64,000 bases of DNA, taken from the IMG/VR virus record IMGVR_UViG_3300034092_002634, positions 18,653 through 82,652 of that record; one strand, 5' to 3'. The notes beneath the pieces were generated by a model. The model ran no database searches. It saw only the letters and a list, made by a program, of their open reading frames with translations, and was not told the DNA's origin. A program made the position numbers and the translations under genes. Shown piece by piece: positions 14,457-48,183 of this stretch (positions are counted from its first letter, which is position 1; every line of letters starts with the position of its first letter). This DNA is from a virus.

Positions 14457-14595
14457 TAACGTAATTCTCCTAAATTAAATTTGATTGGGTGCGGTTATAA
14501 ATCCGGCTTACTTTTAATAAGCCGAACAGAAGAGCGGAGAAAATAAGCGTGCTACATCCTCCGCGACTTTTTAATATAAAGCCAAGAACTGATAC

Positions 14596-23952: not shown

Positions 23953-24603
23953 ATGGCAAGAAATCGAAGGTTTGATGAGATTTTGAAGGATTATTCCGAC
24001 AAGTATGACCTTGCTACGCTTTCATCTCCAAATGACAAAGCTAATTTGGAGATGCTTATTAACAATCAAATTATTGTTGAAAGCGTTCAGGCCAAACTTC
24101 AAGAACTTACGCAGGATGATCCTGTTGACAACATCGATATGATTCAGCGACTCAGCTCTTCCCTTAAGGACATTATTGAGCGTAATCTTCAATTAGAACG
24201 CGCACTAGCTCTGGACCGCAAAACAAGAAACCAGAACTCTTCAGAATCAGTCGCTGAATACATTGTCCATCTTAAGCAAACAGCACAGGAGTTTTTAGAG
24301 AAACGTCTTGTTCGTATGTATTGCCCTAACTGTAAGATCTTGCTGGCTCGTTTTTCAATTATGCACGATCACAGCGCGTTTGCTCTAAAAGTAAACTGCA
24401 ATCAGTGTAACAAGTCGGTAAGTGCAGAACGTGAGGAAAAAGACATCTTTTTTGACATTAAAGATTCGGGCTGGAGAAAGAAACATAAGTACTCAGTTAA
24501 AAGTGCTAAATCTTCTGGATCGAGCAGCTCGGACATAGAAGATGACATTGTTCTTGAAGACGAGGACCAGGAGGAAAATTTAAATGCTGAAAGCGAAGAT
24601 TGA
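23953..24603 (+). CDS. Putative terminase small subunit
   Basis: Immediately upstream of TerL; helical with a CxxC..CxxC Zn ribbon. Confidence 0.5.
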   Translation: MARNRRFDEILKDYSDKYDLATLSSPNDKANLEMLINNQIIVESVQAKLQELTQDDPVDNIDMIQRLSSSLKDIIERNLQLERALALDRKTRNQNSSESVAEYIVHLKQTAQEFLEKRLVRMYCPNCKILLARFSIMHDHSAFALKVNCNQCNKSVSAEREEKDIFFDIKDSGWRKKHKYSVKSAKSSGSSSSDIEDDIVLEDEDQEENLNAESED

Positions 24604-27178
24604 CGACGCAGAGTTGGCGTTAATTGAGGTTTTGGAGGATCCTGTGTGGTTGAACGAATTCCTTCGCTCTACAAATAACGGCGATATGAACCGTTCAAAC
24701 TGGCCTTCCGAGGAATTCACTTTTCGCCCTTATCAAAAAGAAATCTTGACCGACCAGACACGACACGTAGTAATCACTGGTGGCCGAGCAATCGGAAAAT
24801 GCCAACCAGCCTCCGCTAAGGTTTTTACAAACGAGGGGTATAAAACAATTACGGATCTTCTTAAGAAGCCATCTTTTGTTACCTATGGTTATTCCGTGAA
24901 CGGTGATTTTACACAACGGCGTGCTTTTGTGCGTAAAGACAGGTGGAAGAAGTGCTACTCAATTACTACTAAATCAGGACATATGCTTAAGGCAACGGAC
25001 GTTCATCCTGTAATGACTCCAAAAGGATTTATCTTAATGGCGGATCTTCAAGTCGGTGATTTAGTTGCGGTTATGAATAAATTGCCAACTGATCACTGCG
25101 TCAGTAACACACTGAGTTGGGCGGAACTTCGCATACTTGGTTATTTAGCAGCAGGTAGTATTTACTTCAAGCCCGCAGGAGGCATTGTCCCTCGTTACAA
25201 GAGAATAGATGCCGAGATTAAAGAGATAGCAAACTCACTGTACCTCAACTATCGTAAAGACAGCGAAGGTCGCGTTTATATAGAGCGCATGAAGGCTGGC
25301 GGAGTCCGTCACTATCTGAATCAGCTCAAGATTGAACTTGGGGCTTACGGCAAAGACTATAGACGAGTTTTTAAACTTGACTGGCTAAAGACGCAGCGCA
25401 CTGAAAACATAAAAACGTTTCTCGAGGCTGCTTACGCTCAGCACGGTGAGCTGACTCTCGATCGCGTGGCTATTAAACTGCACAACTGGAAATACGTGCA
25501 GGACTGGCAAGAACTTCTGCTTTACTTCGGCGTAAAAACGCGATCGTACAAGGTTGCTGATCACGCAGACGAGCATCACATATTTGACATAGACGACTCA
25601 CAATGGATTGTTGAATCGTACGACAAAAACGCCGCTCACGTTTTTTGGAACCAGTTCAAAGTTCCCGGAGTTTCGGCATCCATAAAGGATCCCGCTTTGG
25701 TATCGAGTGACTGGTACTGTTGGGAGCCCATTAGTAGTAAGCAGCGCCACGGAATGCAGCTGACATACTCTGTTCATGTTTACCACGACGAAACATACAT
25801 CAGTGAGAATGTTGTTGTGCACAATTCTGTAATTTTAGAAGATCTAATAACTTATCAGGTTCTAAACTCTGCAATCGAGTTTCCAAAAACTCCAGAACAG
25901 CTTATGGTTACGCCTAACAGCAACCAATTGAATCCTATTCTAGACAAAGTTATTTTAAAGTTTACAATTTCCCCGCTGCTTAAGGACTTTTTGAACAATA
26001 ACGTAAACCGATCTAAAGGTACGTTAGACTTTCAAATGGGTACTCGAAGACATCGGTTAAATGCGCGTATTGCAGGCAGTCGCGGTGAAAATAACTTGGT
26101 TGGTCTTCACATTCCCAAAATTATGGGAGACGAGTTTCAGCTGTTTCCCATGCCTGCATTTGATCAAATGCAGCCAACGCTAAATACCTGGGAACCGAAA
26201 GTGGAAGAACGATACTTCGGTGTTCCTAACGGAATGAGAAATACGGCTTTGTATGTCTTAGACGTAAAAACACCAAAGTTTAAGAAGTACCGTATTCCCG
26301 CACCAAATAACCCTTACTTTACAAAAGAGGACTGGGACGATGCTTTGTCTAAATACGGTGGTGAATCTGCAGATATCTTTCAGCAGTTAATTCTGGGTAA
26401 GCACGGATCTCCCTCGTTCCAGGTTATTTCTCGTGATCAAATGAAAATACTGCCGTTTGATTTCTACACGTATCGATACAGTTCCAACGAAAAAGATAAA
26501 GGTAGAACATATCAAGAGGCTTTGCCAGTCGTCAAGATACCCAAGTGCGACAGCGTTATTTTCGCAATAGACACCGGCTTTAGCGATCCGACAATTATAC
26601 AAGTAATTGGATTGATTGATAATGTTTGGCATTCGCTGGTTCGTTACAGAATACAGCGTATTGACTATCCGGAACAAGAAAAAATTATAGACTACCTCGC
26701 GCGCGGGTACAACGCAAGCAGAATCGCCATCGACGTAGGAGCTGGCGGCGGAGGGGCAGGAATTGTACAGAGTCTTAAAACTCGTCCCGAATTCGCCTCA
26801 AGTAATTACGCAGCCAGAATAGAAGCAATTCAGTTCAACGAAAAGGTGGGCGTAGGCTCTATCTCCGACGAACAGGAAATAACTGAGTCGTTTAAAGCTT
26901 GGGCAACCACTGAGTTAATTCGTCAAATTACCAACGGGAATCTTGTATTTTCCGAGGTAGACGCTGAGGGTATTTCACAGTTAGAGCGCGTAGCTCGACA
27001 ACGCAGAGCTTCAGGACACATGCACTACTACGTCGTATCCCCACGCGGACACGGTGAGAGTAATGATGACCACATCTACGCAAGCTATCTTTGTTTTATT
27101 GGCGCACTTCGTCTTCCGGTGGTTGCTCCTAAAAGCAACACATTGGCACGATCAGCAGCCTATCACACAGTGAGGTGA
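24584..27178 (+). CDS. terL: Terminase large subunit (intein-containing)
   Basis: RPYQ Q motif, Walker A GGRAIGK|S, Walker B IMGDE, nuclease AIDTGFSD...DDH. Confidence 0.9.
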   Translation: MLKAKIDDAELALIEVLEDPVWLNEFLRSTNNGDMNRSNWPSEEFTFRPYQKEILTDQTRHVVITGGRAIGKCQPASAKVFTNEGYKTITDLLKKPSFVTYGYSVNGDFTQRRAFVRKDRWKKCYSITTKSGHMLKATDVHPVMTPKGFILMADLQVGDLVAVMNKLPTDHCVSNTLSWAELRILGYLAAGSIYFKPAGGIVPRYKRIDAEIKEIANSLYLNYRKDSEGRVYIERMKAGGVRHYLNQLKIELGAYGKDYRRVFKLDWLKTQRTENIKTFLEAAYAQHGELTLDRVAIKLHNWKYVQDWQELLLYFGVKTRSYKVADHADEHHIFDIDDSQWIVESYDKNAAHVFWNQFKVPGVSASIKDPALVSSDWYCWEPISSKQRHGMQLTYSVHVYHDETYISENVVVHNSVILEDLITYQVLNSAIEFPKTPEQLMVTPNSNQLNPILDKVILKFTISPLLKDFLNNNVNRSKGTLDFQMGTRRHRLNARIAGSRGENNLVGLHIPKIMGDEFQLFPMPAFDQMQPTLNTWEPKVEERYFGVPNGMRNTALYVLDVKTPKFKKYRIPAPNNPYFTKEDWDDALSKYGGESADIFQQLILGKHGSPSFQVISRDQMKILPFDFYTYRYSSNEKDKGRTYQEALPVVKIPKCDSVIFAIDTGFSDPTIIQVIGLIDNVWHSLVRYRIQRIDYPEQEKIIDYLARGYNASRIAIDVGAGGGGAGIVQSLKTRPEFASSNYAARIEAIQFNEKVGVGSISDEQEITESFKAWATTELIRQITNGNLVFSEVDAEGISQLERVARQRRASGHMHYYVVSPRGHGESNDDHIYASYLCFIGALRLPVVAPKSNTLARSAAYHTVR
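24800..25825 (+). mobile_element. Intein (342 aa) with degenerate LAGLIDADG-like region
   Basis: Starts CQPASAKV, block B ATDVHPVMT, ends VVVHN followed by S+1; removal restores GGRAIGKS. Confidence 0.92.
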
Positions 27179-33937: not shown

Positions 33938-35324
33938 TGAAGATATTCCAGCATTTTTAGGTATTATGCCACGGTGGGTTGTCTATCAACTTCACACAGC
34001 GGATCACCAGATTGACGACTTGTTCGAGGTTGTTTTGGACTTGGGACGTGTTCCCGAGGCACGCTACCGAAACGCAACAATTCTTTTAGGCGACCGGGAG
34101 GTCACTGACTGGGATCTTGAAGAGTCGGTTAAAATGCTGAAGTTCGGTGAAGACAACCGTGCAGGCCTTCCCCGCATGCTTCACCGCATTTCAGCTATTC
34201 GCAGCCGCTCTGGCAAGATTGTGGGTCTTACGTGTCGATTTGGGCGAGCTATTACCGGTACGATCTCCCTGATTGAGGACTTGGTGGCATCTGGCAAGAG
34301 CGTGCTCATTCTTGGCCGCCCCGGTGTTGGTAAGACAACCATGCTTCGCGAGACCGCCCGTGTGTTGGCCGACGAGATGAAGAAGCGTGTCATTATTGTC
34401 GACACGTCGAACGAAATCGCAGGTGATGGGGATATTGCACATGATGGCATTGGTCGCGCTCGCCGTATGCAGGTGCAGCGCCCAAGCGAACAGCACGCAG
34501 TCATGATTGAGGCAGTGGAAAACCACATGCCTGAGGTTATCATCATTGATGAGATTGGCACTGAACTGGAAGCGCTGGCCTCGCGTACCATTGCTGAACG
34601 CGGTGTTCAACTCATCGGTACGGCTCACGGTCAGTTACTCGAGAACCTCATGGCCAATCCGACGTTGTCGGATCTGGTGGGTGGTATCCAAAGCGTCACT
34701 CTTGGGGACGAGGAAGCTCGTCGTCGGGGCACGCAGAAGACCGTTCTCGAGCGTAAGCAACCACCGACGTTCGATGTCCTTATCGAGATCCGTAGCTGGG
34801 ATGAAGTCCTTGTCTATGACAACGTGGGTGAGGCAGTCGATTCCTTGCTTGCTGGCGAGGCTCCAGAGGGCGAGCAGCGCACAAGGGGTACCGATGGTAC
34901 CATTACGGTAGAACGCGTCGTCTCAGAGGCAGCTGAGGGCCTAGCTGGGCAATCTGCGCAAAGCGTTCGTCGAGCACACAACAAGGCGCCTACCGCGAAA
35001 GGTCAGCGTCAGCGGGGAGACGGTCTTTCCGAGGTTACCAGCTTTCCCAAGATCAAGACTGTACCGGTGACGCAGCGCATCTACGCGTTTGGCTTGAACC
35101 GGAACAAGTTGGAGAAGGCGATTCAAGTGACTGGCGTACCTGCTACAATTGTGCACGACATCGAGGAGGCCACGATGATCTTTACGCTGAAGAGCTATTA
35201 TCGTCAGGGCTCGACTCGGCTTCGCGGGGCACGGCAAAAGAACATTCCGGTGCACGCGTTGCGTTCTCCGAGTGTGAATCAGATTGAACAGTCTCTGCGT
35301 AAGGTATTTCAGATAGAGTACTAA
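33930..35324 (+). CDS. Ycf45/SpoIIIAA-like AAA ATPase lacking the R3H domain
   Basis: EVVLDLGRVPEAR, GRPGVGKTT, VDTSNEIAGDGD, EAVENHMPEVIIIDEIG, GTAHG. Confidence 0.9.
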   Translation: MSNEDIPAFLGIMPRWVVYQLHTADHQIDDLFEVVLDLGRVPEARYRNATILLGDREVTDWDLEESVKMLKFGEDNRAGLPRMLHRISAIRSRSGKIVGLTCRFGRAITGTISLIEDLVASGKSVLILGRPGVGKTTMLRETARVLADEMKKRVIIVDTSNEIAGDGDIAHDGIGRARRMQVQRPSEQHAVMIEAVENHMPEVIIIDEIGTELEALASRTIAERGVQLIGTAHGQLLENLMANPTLSDLVGGIQSVTLGDEEARRRGTQKTVLERKQPPTFDVLIEIRSWDEVLVYDNVGEAVDSLLAGEAPEGEQRTRGTDGTITVERVVSEAAEGLAGQSAQSVRRAHNKAPTAKGQRQRGDGLSEVTSFPKIKTVPVTQRIYAFGLNRNKLEKAIQVTGVPATIVHDIEEATMIFTLKSYYRQGSTRLRGARQKNIPVHALRSPSVNQIEQSLRKVFQIEY

Positions 35325-35335
35325 GGAGAATAGCT

Positions 35336-35653
35336 ATGTATGTAAACAAAGTAGCGGAATCAGTCGAACTGTTTGAACGGGTGCAGCATGCGGTCCAGAA
35401 TCCGCGTTCGACGACGATTGTGATGTCGAAGCCGGTGTACATGTCTACCTTGGTGTACCCACTGTACAATTATGCAACTGTGCACGTGGGTACACTCCTT
35501 CAGATTTACATACATAGCATTCGCCGGGCTGAGAAGGTGTATTTTGGCCTGATCAGTTTTGAGGATGTTGACCTCTTGCTGTTCAAGGCACTGAAGGTAT
35601 ACAATCGCGCAGAACTTGTGGAGCGTGAAACTCGTTCTACGCTCCACAAATAG
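35336..35653 (+). CDS. Hypothetical protein
   Basis: AAGGAG RBS. Confidence 0.5.
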   Translation: MYVNKVAESVELFERVQHAVQNPRSTTIVMSKPVYMSTLVYPLYNYATVHVGTLLQIYIHSIRRAEKVYFGLISFEDVDLLLFKALKVYNRAELVERETRSTLHK

Positions 35654-35697
35654 CGTAGAGTAAATCTCACGCTCCGCAAATAATAGGAGACTGTAAA

Positions 35698-36327
35698 ATG
35701 GCAACACTTAACGCGAACTTACCTTACGTAGACGCCTACATCCGTAAGGAATACACGGGGCATACGGAGCACCTCAGTGGGTACATCTTTGGGGTAAAGT
35801 CGTGGCTTAACCGCCCGATGCACTTCCACTTCCTGTCGTCGATCGGGGCGATTTTTTGGAACATGCCAATTTCCGCGTTTGTGCACGACTTGGAATTTGA
35901 TAAACTGTCGGACGTCGAGCAGACACGGCTATCGTTGCTGCAGACATGGGATTGCCAGTCAAACCACATCGCCGTGACGGTGTTTGCATTCTTGCAGAAT
36001 CGTCGTGTCGATGTGCACTGCCGGGACGATGTTTGGCGAAGTGGTATATATCAGTTCACCATTGACGACTATGATGGTGATCTTAACGAGACGCCTCTCG
36101 GGTATGCCAATCACCAGGATAGTAAGTGCTACCAGTTTATTCGCCTGGATGATGGCAACTTTGGCATTCATCCGAACAACTTGTTACGCTGGCACAACCC
36201 TGACTTCATCGTACCGTATGATAAGAACAACAAGCCTCGGCTTCACGTCTACAGCGAGGAGATGTCGAGTGAGGACATCGATCGCACCTATGGCAACAGT
36301 CCGTATTACTTCTACAGCGCCGAGTAA
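35698..36327 (+). CDS. Conserved hypothetical phage protein
   Basis: AGGAG RBS; LNANLP..AYIRKE, MPISAF, WDC, YQFTID, PNN pattern. Confidence 0.6.
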   Translation: MATLNANLPYVDAYIRKEYTGHTEHLSGYIFGVKSWLNRPMHFHFLSSIGAIFWNMPISAFVHDLEFDKLSDVEQTRLSLLQTWDCQSNHIAVTVFAFLQNRRVDVHCRDDVWRSGIYQFTIDDYDGDLNETPLGYANHQDSKCYQFIRLDDGNFGIHPNNLLRWHNPDFIVPYDKNNKPRLHVYSEEMSSEDIDRTYGNSPYYFYSAE

Positions 36328-36336
36328 GGAGAAAGT

Positions 36337-36690
36337 ATGAACACGAACGCACGAACAGAATTCTTGGAGCACGTTGGCAACCGCATCGTGGTCGCCGCCC
36401 GCATGGCACCGACTGACTATGGTATAGAAAGCGACCGCATCGATTTGCAGGAGAAAGTCTATCTTAAGTTTGGTCTTTACCTCCCCGGTGTCGAGGGGCA
36501 AACCGAGTACGAGGAGTTTCTCAGCAAGCTGGAATTCCTCTATTACAACGGGTACGGCCTGCAGTACATGGACGGTGTGATTTGGTACGAGGATGGCAGT
36601 TGGTCGGACCGCGACGAGTACGATGGCGCTGAGTGGTGGGTGCACCGTTCGCGGCCACGCATCCCCGATGAGTGTATGAAGGATCTGTGA
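36337..36690 (+). CDS. Hypothetical phage protein
   Basis: AAGGAG RBS; GVIWYEDGSWSDRDEYDGAEWW. Confidence 0.6.
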   Translation: MNTNARTEFLEHVGNRIVVAARMAPTDYGIESDRIDLQEKVYLKFGLYLPGVEGQTEYEEFLSKLEFLYYNGYGLQYMDGVIWYEDGSWSDRDEYDGAEWWVHRSRPRIPDECMKDL

Positions 36691-36970
36691 TGAGTAAGAT
36701 CGCTATGGCTCTCTTGTGTGCTGTTCTCCTGTCGCTGGCGTTGCGTTTGCTTTATTATGTATTTGACTGGAGGTGGTATTAATGATATGGATAATCTCAT
36801 TATTGCTGTGTTCTTCGGTGTATTACTGGCGTTCGTAGGGCTGATGTGTTACTTCGCACTCGGATGGTCTTGGTTTTAACGAGATCGAGGCTTGCATTTT
36901 GTTTTGAGTTGGTGTAGACTACGTATGTGCTACTAAGCATGTGTTGTTTCCCAGACGACACCACCTGGGA

Positions 36971-37024
36971 CCCCCTCACGTTACGGCAGAACACGTGAGG
37001 GGTTCTTTTTTTTTTATTTTTTTT
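36971..37024 (+). terminator. Strong terminator before early array
   Basis: CCCCTCACGT/ACGTGAGGGG stem followed by a long T tract. Confidence 0.75.
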
Positions 37025-37223
37025 CTGGCGTCTGCTGGCACTCTGGGGCTTTCTAGGGAGCATTGAACATTATGTTCAGTTGTCGAAACGGGTTGATGCT
37101 TTTTGAAATTTTTCAGTATGACAAAGGTATGGAAGGTGTAGGTATGTATAGGGTTTTTGACTACCTACCATCTACTGCTTGTGTAAGTAGTAGTAATCAA
37201 CTGTCTTTGAAAGGACAAACATC

Positions 37224-37388
37224 ATGTCGAGCATCATCATCATCACCGTCGTCGTCATCGTCGTCACCATCGTCGTTATCATCGCTATCCCTCAGTTGAT
37301 CATGAAGGGTGCAAAGACGTCTCATGAGCTGTGGGTTGAGCGCAACAACGAGGCAATCGCTCAGAACAATGCAGCGCGCCGCAAGTAA
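37224..37388 (+). CDS. Small membrane protein (54 aa; not in ORF track)
   Basis: GAAAGGA RBS; MSSIIIITVVVIVVTIVVIIAIPQLIMK...RRK*. Confidence 0.65.
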   Translation: MSSIIIITVVVIVVTIVVIIAIPQLIMKGAKTSHELWVERNNEAIAQNNAARRK

Positions 37389-37390
37389 CC

Positions 37391-37456
37391 ACAGCGAAAC
37401 AATCTACTCAGTAATGAGTAGGTTGTATGCAGTTTATAACTGCACTGACGAGCTGT
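37391..37456 (+). ncRNA. Hammerhead ribozyme, type II
   Basis: ACAGC GAAA CAATCTACTCA gtaa TGAGTAGGTTG TA TGCAGTT tat AACTGCA CTGACGA GCTGT: complete core and three stems; GUA cleavage after 37427. Confidence 0.92.
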
Positions 37457-37498
37457 TCGTTAGTAATCAGTATTGTCTCTTTGAAAGGACAAACAACC

Positions 37499-37981
37499 AT
37501 GTTCGCAGTCATCATCACCGTCTTCGCAGTCATCGTCGCCATCCGCATCATCAGCAGCATCACCGTCGAGATCACCACCCACCAGTACGATGTCGAGTGT
37601 GAGTGTGTCAAGTGTCAGCAGACCAGCAAGGAGATTCGCAACATGAGTAAGTTGAACGTCAAGTCCATCGAGGAATACGCAGCCATCTACGCTCAATGGG
37701 TATCAGTCGACACCTCAGTCGAAGAGTACTCGGCAGCTGCAGTTGACGTCATCATCACCACAACCGGCACTTGGAAGATGACTTACGTCGTCAACAAGTC
37801 GGTTAAGTTCACTGGCCGCACGTCATACACCGGCAAGACTTCGGGTTGGTTGTTCGAAAACGTCAACACCGGTGCAAGCGACATGTACCTCCAGATCAGT
37901 GGTAAGTCCTCCGCATGGGAAGCTCGCAACTGGTTCGGTAACGGTAACTTCGCTGTCAACACCAAGGTCGCTGTCAAGTAA
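37499..37981 (+). CDS. Hypothetical protein (TM helix plus YDVECECxxC motif)
   Basis: GAAAGGA RBS before MFAVIITV. Confidence 0.6.
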   Translation: MFAVIITVFAVIVAIRIISSITVEITTHQYDVECECVKCQQTSKEIRNMSKLNVKSIEEYAAIYAQWVSVDTSVEEYSAAAVDVIITTTGTWKMTYVVNKSVKFTGRTSYTGKTSGWLFENVNTGASDMYLQISGKSSAWEARNWFGNGNFAVNTKVAVK

Positions 37982-38063
37982 CTAACCAACTAGCAACGCT
38001 CACCTGCTACAGGATGTGAGAATTATCAACATTGCCCAATAAGGGCTAGAGAGAGTGACTACA

Positions 38064-38378
38064 ATGGAGAACATGCTCAACATCACCGCAATCGCCGCCA
38101 ACGACTGGAACGTCTGGACCTGTGCTCACTGTGAGTCGTGCAACTTCGGTGACACGAAGGTCTGCATCGTGTGTGACATGGGCCGCTGGACCAGCTGTGA
38201 CATCGAGTGCGAGCACAACCGGCCAGCACCTGCTTCGGTAGCGGTATACGTCAACTTGGATGAGGTTGTCCAGGTGCCGTTGCCATACACCAACATCCAT
38301 CAGGTGCCTGCTAATTACAAGGAACTGATGGACATGGAGCGCGAAGGTGCTCTGCAGTTGGAAATGCGCTTGTCGTAG
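38064..38378 (+). CDS. RanBP2-like Zn-finger small protein
   Basis: WTCAHCESCNFGDTKVCIVC. Confidence 0.55.
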   Translation: MENMLNITAIAANDWNVWTCAHCESCNFGDTKVCIVCDMGRWTSCDIECEHNRPAPASVAVYVNLDEVVQVPLPYTNIHQVPANYKELMDMEREGALQLEMRLS

Positions 38379-38478
38379 TCTTGTTCACCTGCAACGCTCA
38401 CCTGCAGTAATGGATGTGAGATGTCCGTATGTCCGTATGTGTGTTTATTATTATGTTCTTTGAAAGGACAAAACTACC

Positions 38479-38844
38479 ATGAAGTCAGTCATCAACGCAG
38501 TCATCGGCATGTTCGTGTTGGTCGTCAGCCACTTGGTCATCTACTTCGTTCGCAACCTGAAGATGGGCTTCATCTTCGGCGTCGTCATGCTCACCTTGCT
38601 TGGCTTGGGCATCAGCGGCGAATTGCCTTCTATCGACATTGTCACCGCTAAGTGGGTAGGCATTCTGACCGTTGGGTACGCAGCTGTCGTTGCTGTATTC
38701 GGTGTGTTCGTAACCGCTTACGAGATTCGTAAGTACATGGCCAAGGAAGCAAAGGGCCAAGACACCTGGATTGAGCGGATTAACCTTCTTAAGGTTGTCT
38801 ACAATGTTCCAGGATACAGCTTCCGCAACAACATCACCAAGTAG
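38479..38844 (+). CDS. Small membrane protein
   Basis: Three hydrophobic helices; RBS. Confidence 0.6.
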   Translation: MKSVINAVIGMFVLVVSHLVIYFVRNLKMGFIFGVVMLTLLGLGISGELPSIDIVTAKWVGILTVGYAAVVAVFGVFVTAYEIRKYMAKEAKGQDTWIERINLLKVVYNVPGYSFRNNITK

Positions 38845-38955
38845 TCAACACCGGAGTGGGCGGCAACCGGTCAACTTGCCCACCATTGGAGAAGTGATGC
38901 ATCTCCAGCATAGATCAGCATCCTTGCTGCGTTTGCAGCTAGAGGGGTATTACCA

Positions 38956-41423
38956 ATGGGTAAGTACTATCGGTCCTCGGTGGTTGTTCGTTGGTTGGTG
39001 CACAGTCTGAGCGATTGTGCTATGAGACTGATGCCAATTGGTTTGTCTGATGTCGAGGACGGTAGTCTTCGGTGGAAAGCAGCCAACTGGCTGATGCGCA
39101 AGACTAGCGACTGGGCTGTCGCGCTTAAGAAGGTCTAGTCCACCGTGGAGTAAGCGGATAACCACGTTAAAAACTTGCTTACCATTGGAGAAGTAATGCA
39201 ACTCCAGCATAGCACTGCATTCTCGGATGACAATCATCTGAGCTATAGCTGCCATTGCAGCTAGAAAGGTACGCCTTACCATGGGTAAGAAGTACAACAC
39301 GTCCGCAGTCACCGTTCGTCCGATTGCCACCGGGGAGCTTGCCTTCCTGGTCGAGGCATGGGAGGGCATCAAGCCTTCCCGCAAAGCCGCGGTGACGGTG
39401 CGGATTGCTCGGGAGACCGAGCGTCCGGCCAACTGGCGGCCAAAGACCGACAAGATCGGTCGCCGTCCTCGGATTGAGGCGGTGGTGGCTGAGCGAGAAG
39501 TGGAGGAAGGGCCGCACGAGTGCGACTTCTCGATCAGCCGGTGGGAGGATGTCATCTACCACCATAGCGGGTGGATTGACGTAACTATCGCACGGTGTGA
39601 GTGCGGTAGTTACAACATCACTCCGGAAGACCCGGAGATCCACATCTCCGAAGACGACCACGCTCACCAAGTGTGGATTATTAAAAAGTATAGGTGTAAT
39701 CCTGTGGCGTACGTTTCCGAGTCGTACGAGGGCAGTTCGCCCTTCAAGAAGCTCGACCGGTAGTCACACGTGGAGTCAACGGATAACCACGTTAAAAACT
39801 TGTTGACCATTGTATATACATAATTCTGTGTATATACTAGCTCTCGAAAGGAGCACGGCTATGGAATTCCTTGAGGTATTAGTTCGCGGTAAGACGGTCA
39901 AAGATGTCAGCGTCGAGCAGATCGCGCGCAACATCTACGAAGTCACGGTGGGCCATGGCGGCGGGGAAGAGGGCCCCGACGGTGAATGGCGTGGCTACGT
40001 AATCGGTCGTAGCCAAATTATCATCGCCAGTAGCATGTACGATGCGTGCTACAAGGCGCATCACTTAGCCAAGATAATTGGCTAAGTGTGTTGCAGAGTG
40101 GGCGGTAACTGCATAACTTGCCCACCATTGCATACAGTATAATTCGGTATTGTATGCTAGCTCTCGAAAGGAGCATATCATGCATAAGTATGATGTAGAG
40201 TGTGAGTGTGTAGTGTGTGTGGCGTGGACCGACCGGATCGGGCATAAGTTGGAAACTGTGGCAACATACGTTGACAACAGTGGACACGATTACGACATTG
40301 AGTGCGAATGCACTGAGTGTCAGAAGATCACGGTGGCCGAGCGCGAAATCCAGATGTATGTCCTGGGGGAACCAATCTCTGTCCCGGTTACGATCAATCC
40401 AGAGGTTCAGGAATTCGCTGACAAGAAGTTGTCGGATAGTATTCGGTTCGATCAGCACTAATCAGCACTAGAGCTCTCGGCAAAGCTCGTTAAACACCGA
40501 GTAGAAGGGAATGTCTATGTATGACATTCTGGTTGTGACGGTGTTGGCATTCGTGATGATGGCCGTGTTATTGAAAGGTGGTCGGTAATGAGTCCTGCAG
40601 AACAACTATACGTCGAGAAGTTGTGTCGCCAGTACTATCAGGCGCTCTATGGCGTAGATTACGTCGTAGAGTTCGGGCATATCTTGCTGTTTCCGCATAA
40701 GCATGCGGAGGCTGTGGTCAAGCTCGAGAAACTCATGGAGAATGTCGGTTACCAGGTAGTTCGCCTGGTAGAAATTCGGAAAGGGTAAACTAGTGCACAA
40801 GATCACCCTGTTAGACGTTCGGCATAGTGCTGCCGAAAAGCTGGCCAAAGAGAAACTGCGGGTAGAAGTACCCGCAGAATACAACGGGGATTGGTTCCCC
40901 GCTGTCATGTACGTACCTGCGTATCCCCGTCAGGAGGATCACAGCGTGGATGCTTACACGTTCAAATGTGTGAGCGTCAACGCTAGCCTGAAACGTCTTA
41001 GACGGCTCTACACGGCCCTTGGTGGACGCGCAATGCCTCCGTGGTCCGGTATATTGGTTGACGGCGTCGAGGTCAACGGGAACGTCAAGGACGGCGAGTA
41101 GTCCACCTGGAGTGAGGGGTAACCAGTATAACTTCCTCATGTACTAATTTAGCTCTTGAAAGGAGCGTGTCATGCACAAGTATGACGTTGAGTGCGAGTG
41201 TGTCGAGTGTCAGAAATCCTGGAGGGTGGAGCACATCTGGGAGACCGTCAACTCCCAGGCGGAAGCAGACTGGACTTTCTCGGGTGACACCGAGGACGAG
41301 GTCGTCGCCGCTGCGTACAAGCGCAAAGAGACTCTTCGCCCCACTGAAGAAGAGTGGATGGCTGTGGAGGACAAGTTCTTTCTCTACAAAAAGGGGAAGT
41401 TCTTGGGAGAGTTTTCCCTTTAG
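38956..41423 (+). CDS. Small early genes: 38956-39138, 39281-39763, 39861-40085, 40180-40461, ~40517-40588, 40588-40788, 40793-41101, 41172-41423
   Basis: Each has an RBS or translational coupling; separated by repeated structured elements. Confidence 0.55.
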
Positions 41424-41497
41424 TAGTCCACGTGGTAGTCGGATAACCACGTTAAACACCGACATCATTTTATGTGCAAAAGCACAAGGAGAATCCA

Positions 41498-41974
41498 ATG
41501 CCTAATTGGTGCAGTAACGTTGTTCAACTCAGCAAAGACGGGTACGACTTTACGAGCATGGAAAAACGCATCCCTACCGAGGGACTCTATGCGCAATTCC
41601 TTCCCGCACCCGAGGGACTTGACGACCACCAACTGACGGATTGGTGCTACGAGAATTGGGGCGTTAAGTGGGACACCCAGAACGCAGATGCCGGCGTCGA
41701 TGGCGACCGCATTCAACTGTGTTTTGATAGCCCATGGAGCGCACCACGGCAGTGGCTCGCCTATATGGTGAGCATCGGGTTCGATGTCCGAGGTGCATTC
41801 TGGGAGCCAGGCATGGCCATGGGCGGTGTCTACACTACCTTGCACGATGGAGCACTAGTTGCTCCAGCATTGGAGTGGACGCAGGACAACCTCGTCGAAC
41901 GGGGTAGCGAAATGTACGAATATCTCATCAGTTACGGACTGATCTCAGAAGATGATGAAATGATCAACGACTAG
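41498..41974 (+). CDS. DUF1281/YubB ferredoxin-like family protein
   Basis: MPNWCSN, WCYENWGVKWD, FDSPWSAP, EPGM. Confidence 0.8.
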   Translation: MPNWCSNVVQLSKDGYDFTSMEKRIPTEGLYAQFLPAPEGLDDHQLTDWCYENWGVKWDTQNADAGVDGDRIQLCFDSPWSAPRQWLAYMVSIGFDVRGAFWEPGMAMGGVYTTLHDGALVAPALEWTQDNLVERGSEMYEYLISYGLISEDDEMIND

Positions 41975-42043
41975 CTCGCACGAGGTAACCGGCAAACCTC
42001 GTTAAACACCGGTATCTTTTTATGCTCACGAAAGGAGCACGGT

Positions 42044-44323
42044 ATGTTGTATTGCATGATGGCGGTGTCTCGATGGCTTACTGGTGACCCGGACTTCGGG
42101 TACGATGGGGAGATGATCCCCAAGGTCACCGCGGTGATCTACATCCGTGAACAGCCCTTTGAGGACTGGGAGCGGGAGGAAGGCAGGAATATCTGGAAAA
42201 TCAAGCTCGGTGAGTCTACTGTTGTGTCAATGCATAGGTGGACAACTGATCTCTCTCCAGTGGAGATCAGTACCAAGCATGACTGCGAAGTCATTGACTG
42301 GTCCAAGCGGTAAGTGGAGATCTCGGAGTGAGGGGATAACCGATGTAACTTCCTCAATAGTTATATTAGCTCTTGAAAGGAGCAACGCTATGCAAGTACT
42401 GCAAGCACGGGGAATTATCCTGGAAAATCTGGAAGCGCTTCGCGAGTTCAAGCCCGAGGACTTGCGGCTGGTTGCGTTATACAACGCAGCAGCAGGGCAG
42501 TCCTGGGCCGAGTTCAACCTTATCCGCACAACGTGTGCGGACTGGGACGAGCTCACCTACAACAACTTTGAGGAGGAAGACCTCAAGAATTTGTGGGACG
42601 AACTCTCTGAGCATTTCAGCAAAATCTGGGAAGGAACCAAGTAATGCGAGTACGTGGCAAGCAGCCGCATGTCTATCGTGAGTCAGAAACGGCTACGATA
42701 GCGCGGTACACCAACTTGCTCCCTCCTGTGTACGAGGCAAGTGCACAGGAGTGGAAGGTGTTTGGCCGTCAGGATACCATTGTCCGTGTTGGTACGCGGG
42801 CGACTATGCTGACGTATCTCAAGGGTAGGCGCGATCAGTATACTCGTATGCACGGATACGAGGATTTGACTGACCCCTGCCTCAGGCTGAGGTGGGATAC
42901 TAGTCTGCGGTGCTTTCACGTGACAGAGCCGCAGTTGGACCTACCCGTGTTCTCAGGTACTAAGTACATGTGTACGTGGTATCTGGTTGGCCGGTCGGAC
43001 GAGTTCCAAGGCCTGTAGTGTGTTGACAACGCTCACCTGTGTCGGATGTGAGAAAGTAATTATAGCCCTGAGGGGCAAGAAGGAGAGTGTGACTATGGGT
43101 AAGGTTATCACCGCAGCGGTCTTCATCAGCATGTTCAACAGCTCATTCCGGGACAGGCTCGAGTGGATGAGTGAGGAAGTTCGCGACCTCACGGTGGACG
43201 CGCTCACCCGGGAAGGCTACGACGAGGACGATTTGCGTCGGATGTCGGATGCCTTTGCCAAGCTGGAGGAAAAGTCCAGCGACTTGATCGAGACAGACTA
43301 CGCCAACGATCTGCTGAACGTGGACGAAGAGAGTCTCGATGAGGGTTACTACTCGGATGGTGAAGACGAGTAGTAGGTAGCGGACTGGCAACTCTCGCCT
43401 GCGTCGGATGCGAGGAAGTAATGTATAGCCCTGAGGGGCAAGAAGGAGAGTGTGACTATGGGGACTCAGCATTGCGTCTTGATCCAGGACCGTTTCGACA
43501 ACGAGGCCAAGTTCAACTTGGTCATCACCCACGACGTACCCTTCCACCCGGAAGCGGTCTTGTGGATTGCTCAGCTGTACACGGCAAAGCGTTGGGGGTC
43601 ACAGCCCGACGTGTACCGCACTGCCGAGCTCGATGTCAGCGTCGACTGGAACGACATCGTGTACGTTCCGGCGCTAAATGTCCTGGACTTCGAGTCCTCG
43701 GACTACTGGCCAACACAGAAGCAGCTGAGGTTGGCTCGGATGGCGTTGGATTCGTACCGTATGTTTTATGACGAGTTGGCAAGGCAGGAGAAGATTATCT
43801 CCGGCTATGTCCGTCAGGAGATGCACAAGCAGTACGGTGAGGACACCGTCGCTATGCGTCTTCCCACCTTCCACAGCCGTGCTTCGGCATTGGACATCCT
43901 AGTTCATCTGGCACGGTAAGTCCACACGAGGTAGCCGGCGAACCTCGTTAAACACCGGTATAGTATTATAAGTGCAAGAGCACAAAGGAGAGCAAGATGC
44001 GTTACTCAATCAAGTTCGTGGCGAGTGCGAAGAAGTCCGTTCCCTTCGGCCTGGGTATGAGCAAGAAGTTCCACGACGCTGTGTGGAAGGGTGGGTGTAA
44101 GCGCCAGTGGCACGACATTGGTATCAAGGCCACGGAGTACTGCCTGCGGACACGTTCGTGCATGATCGACGTCGAGGCCTCGGACGCTGCTGAGTTGTCG
44201 TTTAAGCAGGAGGTGTGCCAGAGCCTGGTCGACTACATCTGGCAGGCAAGCAACAAGCCCTTTACAAGCGTAGAGGTGTTCGAGACGTGGAGTCACAAGG
44301 TTATCTACAAGGCTGATCTCTAG
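42044..44323 (+). CDS. Small early genes: 42044-42313, 42390-42644, 42644-43018, 43095-43373, 43458-43919, 43997-44323
   Basis: AAGGAG RBSs; separated by repeated structured elements. Confidence 0.55.
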
Positions 44324-44398
44324 GAATGTCTGGCAACTCCCACCTGCGACGGATGTGGGCAAGCAAAGCAATGTGCAAGTGCACAAAGGAGCAACAGC

Positions 44399-45259
44399 AT
44401 GTCTGATGTCAAAGTCCCTGCAGCAGAGCGTATTGGGTCCGCGATGGTTGAGAAGCTGATCGAGTCACTCGAAGCGGGAGTGGCAAACGGTCAATGGAAG
44501 CAGCCGTGGACAACGTCAAAGCAGATCAATGCGGTCACCGGGGCTAGCTACTCCGGTGCCAATGCGATCAACTTGATGTTGATTGGCGCGGAATGCCCTT
44601 ACTGGGCTACCTTCAATCAGTGGTCGACAGCCGGTTACCGTATTCCACAGGGTACGGAATCCAGCGGTTTTGTCCACACCCCTCCGAGACGGAACAAGAA
44701 GACGGAGAGCGGCGAAGAGATCACCATATTCGTCCCATCAAAGACGTTTGTGGTGTTCAACGGTTCACAAGTCGTTGACGCCGATGGCAACCCGTTCACG
44801 TGGGAATCTTCGCCACCTGTTCCGGTTCTTCCAGAGATCGAGGCCTTCTTCGCCAAGCACAATCCAACGATTGTGCATGACGATCCCAGTAGTGCATATT
44901 ATCATCCGTCGAAAGACTTGATCAATATGCCGCCGATCAACTCGTTTGTTGACAATGTTTCATACTATGGAACGTTAGCGCACGAGATGATTCACTGGAC
45001 TGCACACAAGGACCGGCTGGATCGCGATCTGTCTCAGTATGGCCGTGATCGTAAAGTACGCGCATTCGAAGAACTCATAGCTGAGTTCGGCGCGGCCATT
45101 ATCGGTAGTGAACTTGGTCTAACTACTGAGGTGAGAGATGACCATCTGCAGTATCTAGCTTCTTGGCTATCCTCCCTTAAGGAGGATAAGACGGTACTGC
45201 GGCGGGCGGTTACCGAAGCAGGTAAGGCTTCAGCCTACGTCAGCAGAGATGCTGAGTAG
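44399..45259 (+). CDS. ardC: ArdC-family antirestriction protein (ssDNA-binding plus zincin-like domain)
   Basis: WKQPW, N..TG..YSG.N, WATFNQW, VFN, AYY.PS.D.I.MP, HEMIHWT, EELIAE, YLASWL. Confidence 0.9.
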   Translation: MSDVKVPAAERIGSAMVEKLIESLEAGVANGQWKQPWTTSKQINAVTGASYSGANAINLMLIGAECPYWATFNQWSTAGYRIPQGTESSGFVHTPPRRNKKTESGEEITIFVPSKTFVVFNGSQVVDADGNPFTWESSPPVPVLPEIEAFFAKHNPTIVHDDPSSAYYHPSKDLINMPPINSFVDNVSYYGTLAHEMIHWTAHKDRLDRDLSQYGRDRKVRAFEELIAEFGAAIIGSELGLTTEVRDDHLQYLASWLSSLKEDKTVLRRAVTEAGKASAYVSRDAE

Positions 45260-45304
45260 TTTACATATACCGGTTAGCTCTCACAGAAAGGGGGTGATTA
45301 CCAC

Positions 45305-45607
45305 TTGCCACCATTCGGATTCATGGTGTTAGTTTTCTTCCATCTCCGGTACAAGACTGGAGGTGGTCGGTTCGCCTGGAGTCTGTACTCACTGCGCGCG
45401 TCGCTCAAGTATCAGGACGGTTCGATCTACGGTCGAATACTTTACGACGGGTCGCGTCCGTTGCTAGAGACCTGGGAGAACGGCGTGCGTATCTGGGTAA
45501 GTCCTGACTACGATGCGTATATGGCTGAGTCTCAGCGACGTATCGATCAGGCTGCCAAAGAGTACCGCGTCACGGAGACTTTCGGTCCTGGCGATTCCAT
45601 GCCCTAG
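45305..45607 (+). CDS. Hypothetical protein
   Basis: ORF with GGGGG RBS. Confidence 0.45.
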   Translation: MPPFGFMVLVFFHLRYKTGGGRFAWSLYSLRASLKYQDGSIYGRILYDGSRPLLETWENGVRIWVSPDYDAYMAESQRRIDQAAKEYRVTETFGPGDSMP

Positions 45608-45624
45608 TGTCTGATTATTAATCA

Positions 45625-47588
45625 GCGGTAGGGTACTGTGCCCTACCGCATATGGGAGATGCAACTACTATGCGTAAGCAAGCACAAAAGACCGCAGTGA
45701 CCGTAGTCGAGAACACTGGCAACACCAAGCTGGTTGGTACGTCCGCGATGTACAACTGGATCACCACCTACACCGAGGTGGGGCCGACCTGTCCTACGAC
45801 GTGTTGGTTCCACCCCGAGTCTCTGTATGCCGACGATCTCAAGAAGCTCAAACTCAAGGCCTGCTACACCAAGCGTGGGCATGTGTCCTTCAGTGTTGCG
45901 GCTTCCAAGTTCGCTGGTGCAGATACGTCTGACGGTGCGTTGACTCCTGTGCGTGAGCGCTTCGATCGCATCTTCTTGATGCACGAGGCCGGACGCAAGA
46001 CAGTCGACGGCATTCGCTTCCAGACGGGTGGCGATATTCTCCATCCAGTTACGGGTCAGCCGTGGGTGGAGTTCATCGACCTGATCCTGTACGTTATCGA
46101 GCGTGCATTACCTCTGGGGATACCAGTCATCGGCTTCACCGCTACGTGGCGGTATCCCGAGGTGCAGGTGCTACGTCGCAAGTTCCATGCTTCTGTTCAG
46201 ACGTTTGCTGATGCTCGGCAGGCGACTGAGATGGGTTGGACCGTGGCGTATGCAGTGGGCGAGCAGGACGTACTACAGGCTGTCAGTGAGCTCAGGAGTC
46301 TCGGTCAACGTGCTGTATACTGTCCTGAACAGGCAGGTAAGGCAAAGAGCTGCAGTGACTGTGGTCTGTGTGCAGTGGCCGATAGCAGTAGACTCGACAG
46401 AGTTCTTTGGGAAGAGAACTACATGCTGTATCGGAAGCGTTTTGTGTTGACCGACATCCCAGTGTCGATCGTACTCAAGAACCACTAGTCGGTAAGTCTA
46501 TGACCCGGGGACAATTCGGTTCCCGGGTCTATTACAAAGGAGTGTGTAGGGTTATGGAAAAGCGCGCATTGATCCGGTGGAATGACGGTGAAGATCTCCA
46601 GGTGTTGATTGGCATCGGTAAGTGGGATGGTAAGTCGAACGACGACCACATCTTCTACTGGATGGAAGAGTTGACTGACTACCAGGTTGGGTACCGCAAC
46701 GGTGATGGGTGGACCATCATCCAGATCGAGAAGGAGACTGCGTTGAGTACTAAGTGGACATTGAATCGGCCTGAGCTGGCAGACAACGACGAGGAGGTAG
46801 TGGTGGGTCTCGACTACAACAACGAGCGGTCAGACTTCAATCTGGCGCGCGTACAGTTTGTCGAGCTGTACAACGGTATCCCTGAGCCATACTTCCACAT
46901 CAGCTTCGACGAGGCTATGTGCTACAGTGTGTCTGCCAAAGAGTTGTTGTCCGACACCTACAAGACCATCTACGTACCAGGTGCTTGGGGTGCGACTCTC
47001 TGCTGGATTCCGATCCACCGAGCGTAGTTGTTGTGGTCCATGCGGGATAGTAATGTGCTATCCCGCTTACCTATAGGAGGATGCAATGAGCATCAAGATT
47101 ACTGTGACTGAAAAAGTGCTGAAGGACTCGTTGATCTCGGCCGTGTCGGATCTCTATCATGTCGACAACTGCGAAGAGTTCGGCGAGTGGATGTTCGTGC
47201 GGTACTTCGGTAACCGCGCTGACCTCGAGAACGATCTGTCCGAGCAGCTGGGTCACTCTAGCTACAACATCGGCATCTCGCTTCTCAACCTGGCACCAGA
47301 CTCAGATGAGTTGCGGCGTGACTACTTCCGCCACAATCACCGCAACAACTTGCTCACACTCGAGCAGGCGGTGCATATGATTCAGTTCGGTCACGAGATC
47401 TGGGTCTGCAACTACAATGCAGATCAGGAGATTGATCTGTTCACGACCGTCACTATCTCGGACTTCGACGAGGACCGTGACGAGTCATTGACCGAGTGGC
47501 TCAAGGACATGCAGGCCTGGGCTAAGCAGGACTGGGCTAAGTAGTCTACACAGTGGGGTCCCTGCGGAGTAGTAAAGTGCTACTCCGC
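45625..47588 (+). repeat. Three 9-bp hairpins with TA(A/C)(T/A)GTG loop
   Basis: 45625-45649, 47042-47066, 47564-47588; stems differ in sequence but pair fully. Confidence 0.7.
45670..46488 (+). CDS. Cys-rich GP88-like phage protein
   Basis: GNTKL, TCPTTC..ACY, RFQTGGD, CPEQ....SCSDCGLC. Confidence 0.6.
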   Translation: MRKQAQKTAVTVVENTGNTKLVGTSAMYNWITTYTEVGPTCPTTCWFHPESLYADDLKKLKLKACYTKRGHVSFSVAASKFAGADTSDGALTPVRERFDRIFLMHEAGRKTVDGIRFQTGGDILHPVTGQPWVEFIDLILYVIERALPLGIPVIGFTATWRYPEVQVLRRKFHASVQTFADARQATEMGWTVAYAVGEQDVLQAVSELRSLGQRAVYCPEQAGKAKSCSDCGLCAVADSSRLDRVLWEENYMLYRKRFVLTDIPVSIVLKNH

Positions 47589-48183
47589 TTTCTTATAAGG
47601 AGCGCGAGAGTTATGCATCACACCTACGTGGCAATTGAGCTTTCATCGGAAGACATGGAGCAGGCTCTAATTCAGATCAGGGACGTCGTCGAGCATGATC
47701 CTGAGGAATGTGACGTCAACGATACGGAGATCGAGTTGGCTCCTAAGCTGGCTTCTCTCTGTATCCTGTTCCTGCATGAGTTCGCAGAGGCACAGGCGCA
47801 AGGTAAGGTCAACCTCGATTCAATCTGGCTACCGAATTACGAGCTTCGGCTCTTGGTGGCTACGGCCGCGAAGTTATTAATGGCAGCATCTGAAGAGAAA
47901 GAGGGTGAGTAACATGGCTAAGTTCACTGTAATTGAGTACATGGACCCAGCAGGCGACGTCGACAGCATTGAAGTTGACTTGGCGTGGCCACTTGCAGAC
48001 GTTCAGCTGCTACTGGCGTACCAGACACGGCGTCACGAGACACAGTGGAAGGAGCACTTCGGTCCTACTGACTACTTCAATCGTCAGTACCCGCGGATGA
48101 TGGCCGTGATTGCGGATGCTAAGCGTCGTTTCGGTAACGGTACCCCTATCGATGAGCTGACTATCATCGACTGGCAGGAATAG
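46554..48183 (+). CDS. Small early genes: 46554-47027, 47086-47544, 47613-47912, ~47914-48183
   Basis: RBSs; separated by hairpin repeats. Confidence 0.55.

Follow-up and report, generated by a model that had tools for sequence, protein, structure and literature searches.

Motif A is an H-type pseudoknot of 31-40 nucleotides (nt) that occurs ten times, each time between genes, within a 64,000-nt stretch of viral DNA (hereafter the window). The window comes from a virus record of 82.6 kb in IMG/VR (IMGVR_UViG_3300034092_002634) that originates from lake water. The fold is a real, covarying and strand-specific pseudoknot, and it recurs in other phages. From comparative analysis of sequences, we tentatively favor, as a possibility that falls somewhat short of probable, the reading that motif A is a passive knot that would shield each downstream cistron from 5'-to-3' decay. 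This reading builds on what is observed, namely the fold, its covariation, strand, positions and spread, and the interchangeability of motif A with other elements in the same spacers.

The motif A pseudoknot and its covariation

Motif A consists of two stems (S1 and S2) and three loops (L1 to L3), in the order S1, L1, S2, L2, S1', L3, S2'. A structure scan of the whole 82.6-kb genome, in which L1 was 1-2 nt, L2 was 3-4 nt ending in AA, and L3 contained AAC, found the ten elements listed below and three weak extras on the + strand, and seven matches on the - strand. The same scan found 0-5 weak matches per strand in 20 composition-matched shuffled genomes. All ten copies lie where they had been placed by a preliminary description of the window, which was made from the letters alone, and the stem sequences, the division into two subtypes (six and four copies) and the invariant GG, AA and AAC are likewise as that description gave them. 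S1 starts at the first position of each copy, and stem lengths are in base pairs (bp):

38850..38883, + strand: copy 1, subtype I; S1 5 bp, L1 A, S2 8 bp (two G.U pairs at the junction), L2 CAA, L3 CAAC; 50.4 bits
39144..39182, + strand: copy 2, subtype I; S1 5 bp, L2 ATAA, L3 TTAAAAAC; 51.6 bits
39768..39807, + strand: copy 3, subtype I; S1 6 bp, L2 ATAA, L3 TAAAAAC; 45.7 bits
40092..40125, + strand: copy 4, subtype I; S1 5 bp (TGCAG/CTGCA), L2 TAA, L3 TAAC; 48 bits
40471..40501, + strand: copy 5, subtype II; S1 4 bp, L1 T, S2 5 bp, L2 CAAA, L3 GTTAAACA
41107..41140, + strand: copy 6, subtype I; S1 4 bp, S2 8 bp, L2 TAA, L3 TATAAC; 46.3 bits
41430..41463, + strand: copy 7, subtype II; S1 6 bp, L1 TA, S2 5 bp, L2 ATAA, L3 TAAACA
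41980..42013, + strand: copy 8, subtype II; S1 6-7 bp, S2 5 bp, L2 CAAA, L3 TAAACA
42323..42356, + strand: copy 9, subtype I; S1 4 bp, S2 7 bp, L2 ATAA, L3 TGTAAC; 45.5 bits
43926..43959, + strand: copy 10, subtype II; S1 6 bp, L1 TA, S2 5 bp, L2 CGAA, L3 TAAACA

In the six subtype-I copies, S2 has 7-8 bp and ends in GG paired to TT; the four subtype-II copies have an S2 of 5 bp and a TAAACA linker.

Both stems carry compensatory changes, as the preliminary description had noted. Among the subtype-I copies of the window, 98.7% of cells are paired, and both partners have changed at 7 of 14 pairs. When copies from other contigs are included, subtype II is 90% paired, with both-side changes at 5 of 11 pairs, and the signal is strongest in S2. 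A covariance-model search of other phage contigs, which the preliminary description had suggested, extends the family beyond the window: a model built from the six subtype-I copies of the window, with S2 alone encoded and a cut-off of E<0.05, retrieves 22 subtype-I copies from ten sources. In the alignment of these 22 copies the knot is 94.2% paired, and double changes occur at 10 of 13 pairs, including four of the five S1 pairs, which were not encoded in the model. At most 1 of 500 shuffles reaches any of these measures, and partners that have been slid out of register are 42-54% paired.

Pattern scans of IMG/VR in which loop letters alone were fixed gave 59 matches to the subtype-I core, 11 of which pair in both stems, and 49 matches to the subtype-II core, 6 of which do so. 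The remaining matches pair at chance level, and the distribution is bimodal. As a negative control, a mistyped pattern with one N too many gave 22 matches, none of which pairs. In addition, the ortholog of copy 10 in a relative (L018) differs by two changes that both preserve pairing (A-U to G.U, and C-G to U.G).

The two S2 pairs adjacent to the junction are G.U in 22 of 22 and 20 of 22 subtype-I copies. The opposite strand would have C.A mismatches at these pairs, and the fold therefore belongs to the sense RNA (or to that single DNA strand). L1 is 1 nt long where S2 has 7-8 bp and mostly 2 nt long where S2 has 5 bp, a relation that is a requirement of pseudoknot geometry. The invariant letters surround the helical junction, and consist of the G-C pair that closes the S1 loop (20 of 21 subtype-I copies, and the majority of subtype-II copies), the A of L1, the AA of L2, and the AAC that ends L3 and is followed by UU or CC.

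The knot is beyond the reach of minimum free energy folding, which selects S2 for subtype I and S1 for subtype II at modest z-scores. Two other foldings were considered. Copies 4 and 5 rule out a mini-hairpin (GG-loop-CC) that would replace S1 or S2. A further helix formed with upstream GTCC/CCAC words was also rejected, as these words are conserved in the window lineage only and are absent from other phages.

The stop codon of a small upstream open reading frame (ORF) lies 4-9 nt before each of the ten copies, and the next start codon 20-110 nt after it. Within a spacer the knot comes first, followed in most cases by an A/U-rich single-stranded stretch and then by the Shine-Dalgarno sequence, often in a small hairpin. 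Motif A never overlaps the Shine-Dalgarno sequence. The small hairpins are conserved elements of the GCTCT-CGAAA-GGAGC type that hold the Shine-Dalgarno sequences of many genes in their 3' arms, so that ribosome binding may require the hairpin to open. They are found at the following places:

39838-39855: Shine-Dalgarno hairpin
40157-40174: Shine-Dalgarno hairpin
41150-41166: Shine-Dalgarno hairpin
42022-42038: Shine-Dalgarno hairpin
42371-42386: Shine-Dalgarno hairpin

Motif A in other phages

Two relatives of the window genome carry arrays of the motif. G005 is a 41-kb contig that is syntenic with the window genome (38 shared proteins, 30-67% identity) and has the knot in ~18 spacers, each time 2-8 nt past a stop codon and 9-14 nt ahead of GGAGG. 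G006 is a complete 79.9-kb relative with terminal repeats and at least ten copies of motif A, which lie within a ~15.6-kb operon that has strong terminators at both bounds and one internal sigma-70-like promoter (11/12).

Single copies are present in at least ten phage contigs that have no detectable protein similarity to the array-bearing phages and whose GC content ranges from 32 to 58%. Because the carriers differ so widely in GC content and share no detectable proteins, a phage-encoded partner is unlikely. The single-copy carriers are as follows:

G001
G002, where the copy precedes DNA polymerase A
G003, where the copy has an 11/12 sigma-70 promoter (extended -10 element) ~40 nt ahead of it and no upstream ORF
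G004, where a tight tRNA array has one long spacer, which the copy fills, with tRNA-Met ending 9 nt before it and tRNA-Thr starting 3 nt after it; the other spacers of the array are 3-6 nt
L121, L122, L130, L132/L156, L138, L145/L146 and L172

Outside the window, motif A lies 2-14 nt from the upstream stop codon. Two specific sub-patterns, each present in at least three phage lineages, had zero matches among 185,579 prokaryote genomes, and matches among JGI metagenome contigs were confined to the window's own phage and one new copy. A variant knot is seen at L087:2100-2247 and L174:16237-16332, with a pyrimidine-rich 5' strand of S2 (CTCCC paired to GGGAG), an L2 of 1 nt and the linker GTTAATATC. 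This variant is conserved between G005 and G006, and is followed by CCATTG and a hairpin.

The tight spacing between upstream stop codon and knot, set against 20-110 nt to the next start, raises the alternative that motif A stabilizes the 3' end of the upstream gene. After a cut by a host endonuclease in the A/U-rich linker, the knot would block PNPase and RNase II/R, as do REP elements and intercistronic hairpins. The A/U-rich single-stranded linker that follows most copies is consistent with this role, as is a G005 copy that follows the last sizeable gene of its array. However, the G003 copy resides in a 5' leader that has no upstream ORF, the G004 copy directly precedes a tRNA, and the distance to the downstream GGAGG is nearly constant in G005. 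A plain hairpin would also suffice for 3' stabilization, which would leave the conserved core unexplained. We consider this role unlikely.

Cultured phages are distant from the window genome, whose DNA polymerase A shares no more than 29% identity with its counterpart in Pseudanabaena phages. A megablast search of the motif region against cultured phages gave no match, and a short-query blastn search with the motif gave chance matches only, among them one in an Acinetobacter phage that is antisense to that phage's genes. The accessory-gene block on the + strand (34000-48000) has a GC content of 51-54%, compared with 40-48% elsewhere in the genome. Elsewhere in the window, a giant ORF on the - strand (2-13264, >4421 amino acids) runs past the window edge; Pfam recognizes only a NUDIX domain in it, and it has no PHROG match. 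The terminase large-subunit gene (24584-27178) has an apparent intein (sub-threshold match to Pfam Intein_splicing, residues 80-414).

Other occupants of the spacers and known RNAs

Motif A is one of several structured elements that occupy the spacers of this operon. The others that we recognized in the window are:

37391-37456: type II hammerhead, 2 nt past a stop codon
48187-48258: type II hammerhead, 3 nt past a stop codon, toward the distal end of the array
37993-38020: motif B
38391-38420: motif B
43026-43052: motif B
43387-43415: motif B
44332-44359: motif B
45625-45649: GCGG hairpin
47042-47066: GCGG hairpin
47564-47588: GCGG hairpin
46502-46529: a fourth long hairpin, of another kind

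Motif B is a 5-bp hairpin with a conserved loop (CTG..GGAT) and CAAC in front, and it takes the position that motif A has in other spacers. Its stem covaries (CTCAC/GTGAG, CTCGC/GCGAG, CCCAC/GTGGG), and it is found in G005 and G006 too. Several long hairpins with conserved loops also fill the slot in the window operon, including a hairpin family, downstream of the pseudoknot block, whose members have 9 bp, start with GCGG, carry the loops TAATGTG, TAAAGTG or TACTGTG, and have covarying stems. In orthologous spacers, motif B or a hairpin in the window corresponds to motif A in G005. A relative whose ATPase is 92% identical has a different long hairpin throughout the spacers of its array. Its spacer unit (L026:12607-17035) combines a hairpin of 11 bp with CACACAG repeats and a promoter-like stretch rich in T.

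Read directly, the hammerhead at 37391-37456 has three stems and a complete core, with CUGACGA, GAAA, and an A at the cleavage site following stem III; this stem has 11 bp, and stems I and II have 5 bp each. No Rfam model reports this hammerhead, even at E<=10, and the stretch also matches freshwater-2 (RF02980) weakly, at 25 bits. The second hammerhead matches the Hammerhead_II model (RF02276) at 28.9 bits (E 2.8e-5), which is under the gathering score of 37; this model matches that spacer and not motif A. G006 (13097-13193) and another relative, G007, carry equivalent hammerheads, and in a second G006 copy, at 14486, the CUGANGA box is damaged.

Arrays of type II hammerheads flank genes in prophages and phages (Perreault et al. 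2011, PMC3088659), and the arrangement of motif A resembles theirs in having one structured RNA per spacer, among small phage genes, after stop codons and before ribosome-binding sites. Hammerheads even fill two slots of motif A's own operon. However, motif A lacks the hammerhead core (CUGANGA, GAAA and UH), which rules out its identity as a hammerhead, and cleavage by motif A is only conjectural.

Could motif A nonetheless belong to a new, very small class of self-cleaving ribozymes, which would cut the polycistronic RNA at each spacer as the two hammerheads of the operon would? The presence of hammerheads in equivalent slots, 2-3 nt past stop codons, is circumstantial support, and new ribozyme classes have been discovered through such association (PMC4604425). 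The invariant nucleotides cluster at a single junction and include tandem G.U pairs and an invariant C, and the presence of motif A in unrelated phages means that it is probably self-sufficient. Its P1-like hairpin, loop pseudoknot and A-rich linker also resemble the 5' half of pistol (PMC7373991). On the other hand, no Rfam ribozyme model matches, and plain hairpins also fill the slot. No conserved candidate cleavage dinucleotide was seen in motif A, which also lacks P2, P3 and the G-U site of pistol as well as P3, L3 and P1.1 of HDV-like ribozymes. A contig from an RNA library that runs unbroken over copy 10 counts weakly against cleavage. With a length of 31-40 nt, motif A is, to our knowledge, smaller than any natural self-cleaver. 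We judge a new ribozyme class to be improbable, and slightly more so the fuller proposal that motif A is the smallest natural self-cleaver and that it and the hammerheads cut the operon transcript into single-gene messages.

The likeness to pistol is closest for the env25 ribozyme (PDB 5K7C), which is phage-associated and in which the loop of the P1 hairpin forms a pseudoknot (5-7 bp in pistol), with an A-rich linker. Copy 2 and env25 (PMC7373991) have P1 and most letters of the linker in common. Because S2' varies among the copies of motif A, we read this likeness as one of architecture together with chance. The pistol model (RF02679) has no match in the genome at E<=10, and motif A lacks P2, P3 and the internal loop in which pistol, with its 10 conserved nucleotides, has the pseudoknot partner and the G-U cleavage site; S2' directly follows the linker, and the sequence past S2' is not conserved across copies. 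Theta ribozymes (PMC10879173) share with motif A the nested order of P1 and P2 and an invariant C in the last joining strand, and they lie next to phage tRNAs, as does the motif A copy in a tRNA array. However, an HDV-like or theta identity was rejected because motif A, which lacks P3, L3 and P1.1, has just the 3-4 nt of L2 in their place, copies 4 and 5 rule out a GG/CC mini-helix, and no such Rfam model matches.

Motif A had been described as no known family, and our searches agree. Rfam 15 has no match to it at the gathering score in the window, nor at E<=10 over 38700-44100, and a targeted search with the wcaG model (RF01761) found no match in the genome. Mimicry of tRNA or RNase P, including a T-loop reading of GTTAAACAC, was rejected because the copies have no consistent 3' CCA or T-stem.

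Compact pseudoknots that act in frameshifting, such as those of BWYV and other luteoviruses and of MMTV gag-pro, resemble motif A in having a 1-nt L1, an unpaired A at the junction, and an L3 whose many A residues suit minor-groove triples, and motif A also lies 4-9 nt after the A-site codon. However, motif A follows stop codons rather than slippery sites. Stops occur in nearly all frames of every spacer, and the frame relation between the flanking ORFs is inconsistent; with no frame open across the spacers, recoding by readthrough or by a frameshift that fuses ORFs is therefore ruled out.

preQ1-I riboswitches have the same strand order (S1-S2-S1'-S2') and likewise three loops, the last of them rich in A and terminated by AAC, although S2 of motif A is far longer than P2 of preQ1 RNAs, and the preQ1-I model (RF00522) has no match at E<=10 over 38700-44100. 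This layout suggests that motif A might be a binding site for a conserved host factor (the ribosome or protein S1, RNA polymerase, or an RNase) or for a small ligand, and might regulate the next gene at translation or elongation. Specific recognition typically goes with an invariant junction core and variable helices, the G005 copies keep a constant position ahead of the ribosome-binding site, and some S2 strands are Shine-Dalgarno-like or anti-Shine-Dalgarno-like. In most copies, however, S2 is not Shine-Dalgarno-like, no Rfam riboswitch model matches, and one copy is located between tRNAs, where translation does not occur. A ligand-binding riboswitch is unlikely, because there are 10-20 copies per operon and the ribosome-binding site is not overlapped. 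Overall, we regard a binding site as quite unlikely.

Variation among strains bears on a role in DNA. In strains from other lake and subsurface metagenomes, similarity to the window breaks exactly at motif edges (38850, 38888 and 38895). One subsurface strain has 429 other letters in place of 39300-39769 (gene 39281-39763), up to the first base of copy 3, and the 46 nt of copy 1 (38850-38895) are the sole stretch that another contig has in common with the window. Cassettes are thus exchanged at the edges of the motif.

In T4-type phages, PeSL elements combine an early promoter with a terminator-like hairpin, and act in DNA and in transcription (PMC2839356, PMC4122927). Like motif A, they are repeated intergenic motifs beside small accessory genes in a hyperplastic region, and differences between strains break at the motifs. 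With this precedent, motif A might act in DNA, as a module for cassette-swapping recombination or as a promoter for an unknown polymerase, and the different repeat that a close relative has in the same array fits such a role. Yet motif A, unlike PeSL, is a pseudoknot built around a conserved core, and it lacks both a T-run and promoter hexamers. Its invariant G.U pairs make the fold strand-specific, and the variation of the stems among copies would reduce rather than favor homologous recombination. No sigma-70-like promoter or intrinsic terminator (hairpin and T-run) coincides with any copy, which excludes an ordinary promoter or terminator role. The genome also has no T7-like RNA polymerase gene that we could find, a weak negative as the control search also matched nowhere. 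The shuffling of cassettes may be a by-product of any repeated element, and a DNA-level function seems very unlikely.

A possible barrier to 5'-to-3' decay

The reading that we favor is that motif A is a transcribed, self-folding knot that punctuates a long operon in which the phage keeps small accessory genes. This operon would be transcribed as a single unit by the RNA polymerase of the host, with sigma-70-type promoters at its start and ordinary terminators at its end. The knot would sit as far 5' in the spacer as a terminating ribosome permits. Its compact junction core (the G-C closing pair, the A of L1, the AA of L2, the AAC of L3, and two G.U or G-C pairs) may resist unwinding from the 5' side, and the knot would thereby block an RNase J-type 5'-to-3' exonuclease that had started upstream, as well as RNase E scanning that depends on the 5' end. 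The 5' end of each downstream cistron would in this way stay protected and its ribosome-binding site undisturbed.

Hammerheads leave a 5'-OH, which is not accepted by 5'-monophosphate-dependent enzymes. Those in neighboring spacers could reach the same end in this way, and under the barrier reading hammerheads can replace the knot because their 5'-OH ends also resist such enzymes. The same reading would account for stable hairpins replacing the knot, and for the knot in a 5' leader and before a tRNA. These last two contexts (G003 and G004) appear sensible only as protection of what lies downstream, and the near-constant 9-14 nt to GGAGG in ~18 spacers of G005 fits downstream protection. A flaviviral exoribonuclease-resistant RNA (xrRNA) blocks bacterial RNase J1 through a general mechanical effect (PMC5760640).

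The closest parallel to the proposed barrier is coremin (xrRNA-C), which is carried by beny-, cucumo- and other plant or invertebrate RNA viruses (PMC6546385, PMC10321173). Coremin consists of a hairpin of 3-5 bp with a YGAD loop, G12, the spacer U13 U14 A15 A16 A17 C18 U19 A20 C21, and a second hairpin; A16 to A20 are essential, U13U14 can be changed, an insertion of two U is tolerated, and the loop-closing pair must be C-G or U-A, as G-C abolishes resistance to Xrn1 (PMC6546385). Its Watson-Crick variants (xrRNA-WCC) form an H-type knot with a 1-nt L1 and a 3-bp S2, in which an A-rich stretch is predicted to lie in the minor groove of S1, and coremin stalls ribosomes too (PMC10321173).

Motif A has a short first stem like that of coremin (S1 of 4-7 bp), in which compensatory changes indicate that pairing and not sequence matters, and a loop that ends in A-A/D. 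It lies a few nucleotides after an ORF (the last ORF in the case of coremin) and is often followed by a hairpin. Directly after S1, G-UUAAAC is present in 10 of 10 subtype-II copies. Compared with the coremin spacer UUAAACUAC that follows G12, all 22 subtype-I copies have AAC, and the 5' part of L3 is variable. U19-A20 is absent, and where coremin has UA a Watson-Crick S2 begins, as it does in xrRNA-WCC, with which motif A also shares the H-type knot and the 1-nt L1.

Motif A also differs from coremin. The S1 loop of motif A is 10-14 nt long and includes one strand of a Watson-Crick S2 of 5-8 bp, whereas the coremin loop has 4-6 nt (YGAD or YGNNAD) and the coremin S2 is 3 bp or non-canonical. 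The loop of motif A starts with A-G (subtype I) or mostly U-A (subtype II), so that its last two letters, AA, alone fit coremin, and it has an extra L2 of 3-4 nt. Unlike coremin, motif A occurs in DNA phages, in arrays of 10-20 copies. Because it departs from the rules for both the loop and the closing pair, motif A is similar in plan to coremin and is not a coremin member.

Several observations weigh against a barrier to decay. The G-C pair that closes the S1 loop in motif A is the one that inactivates coremin, and coremin needs an adjoining hairpin; a hairpin lies 4-12 nt past S2' in nine of the ten window copies and in only a minority of those in G005. Known pseudoknots that stimulate frameshifting and are built similarly fail to stall Xrn1 (PMC10321173). 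The invariant junction core would suit a catalytic or ligand-binding pocket equally well. For the G005 copy that follows the last sizeable gene of its array, a downstream cistron is doubtful. Finally, the evidence from RNA consists of three short, low-depth contigs from one metatranscriptome, for which DNA carry-over is possible, and no contig ends at the motif. The contig that crosses copy 10 uninterrupted comes from a strain that is 7% diverged and has 16 differences, none of them within the motif.

If motif A is indeed a barrier to 5'-to-3' decay, it would be, as far as the searchable literature indicates, the first family of exoribonuclease-resistant (xrRNA-like) RNAs in bacteriophages; that literature links neither coremin nor xrRNAs to them. 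It would also link a trick of plant viruses to DNA viruses of bacteria, and would explain why each spacer holds one structured RNA: hammerheads, knots and hairpins would be exchangeable routes to a protected 5' end for each cistron. As the motif is tiny, self-folding and apparently works across hosts of very different GC content, this function is directly testable, and the motif is attractive for stabilizing or insulating genes in synthetic operons. If motif A is instead a ribozyme, it would represent a categorically new class of catalytic RNA. Either way, motif A is a well-supported RNA family missing from Rfam, and one that probably serves as structured punctuation of phage operons by means of a coremin-like knot.

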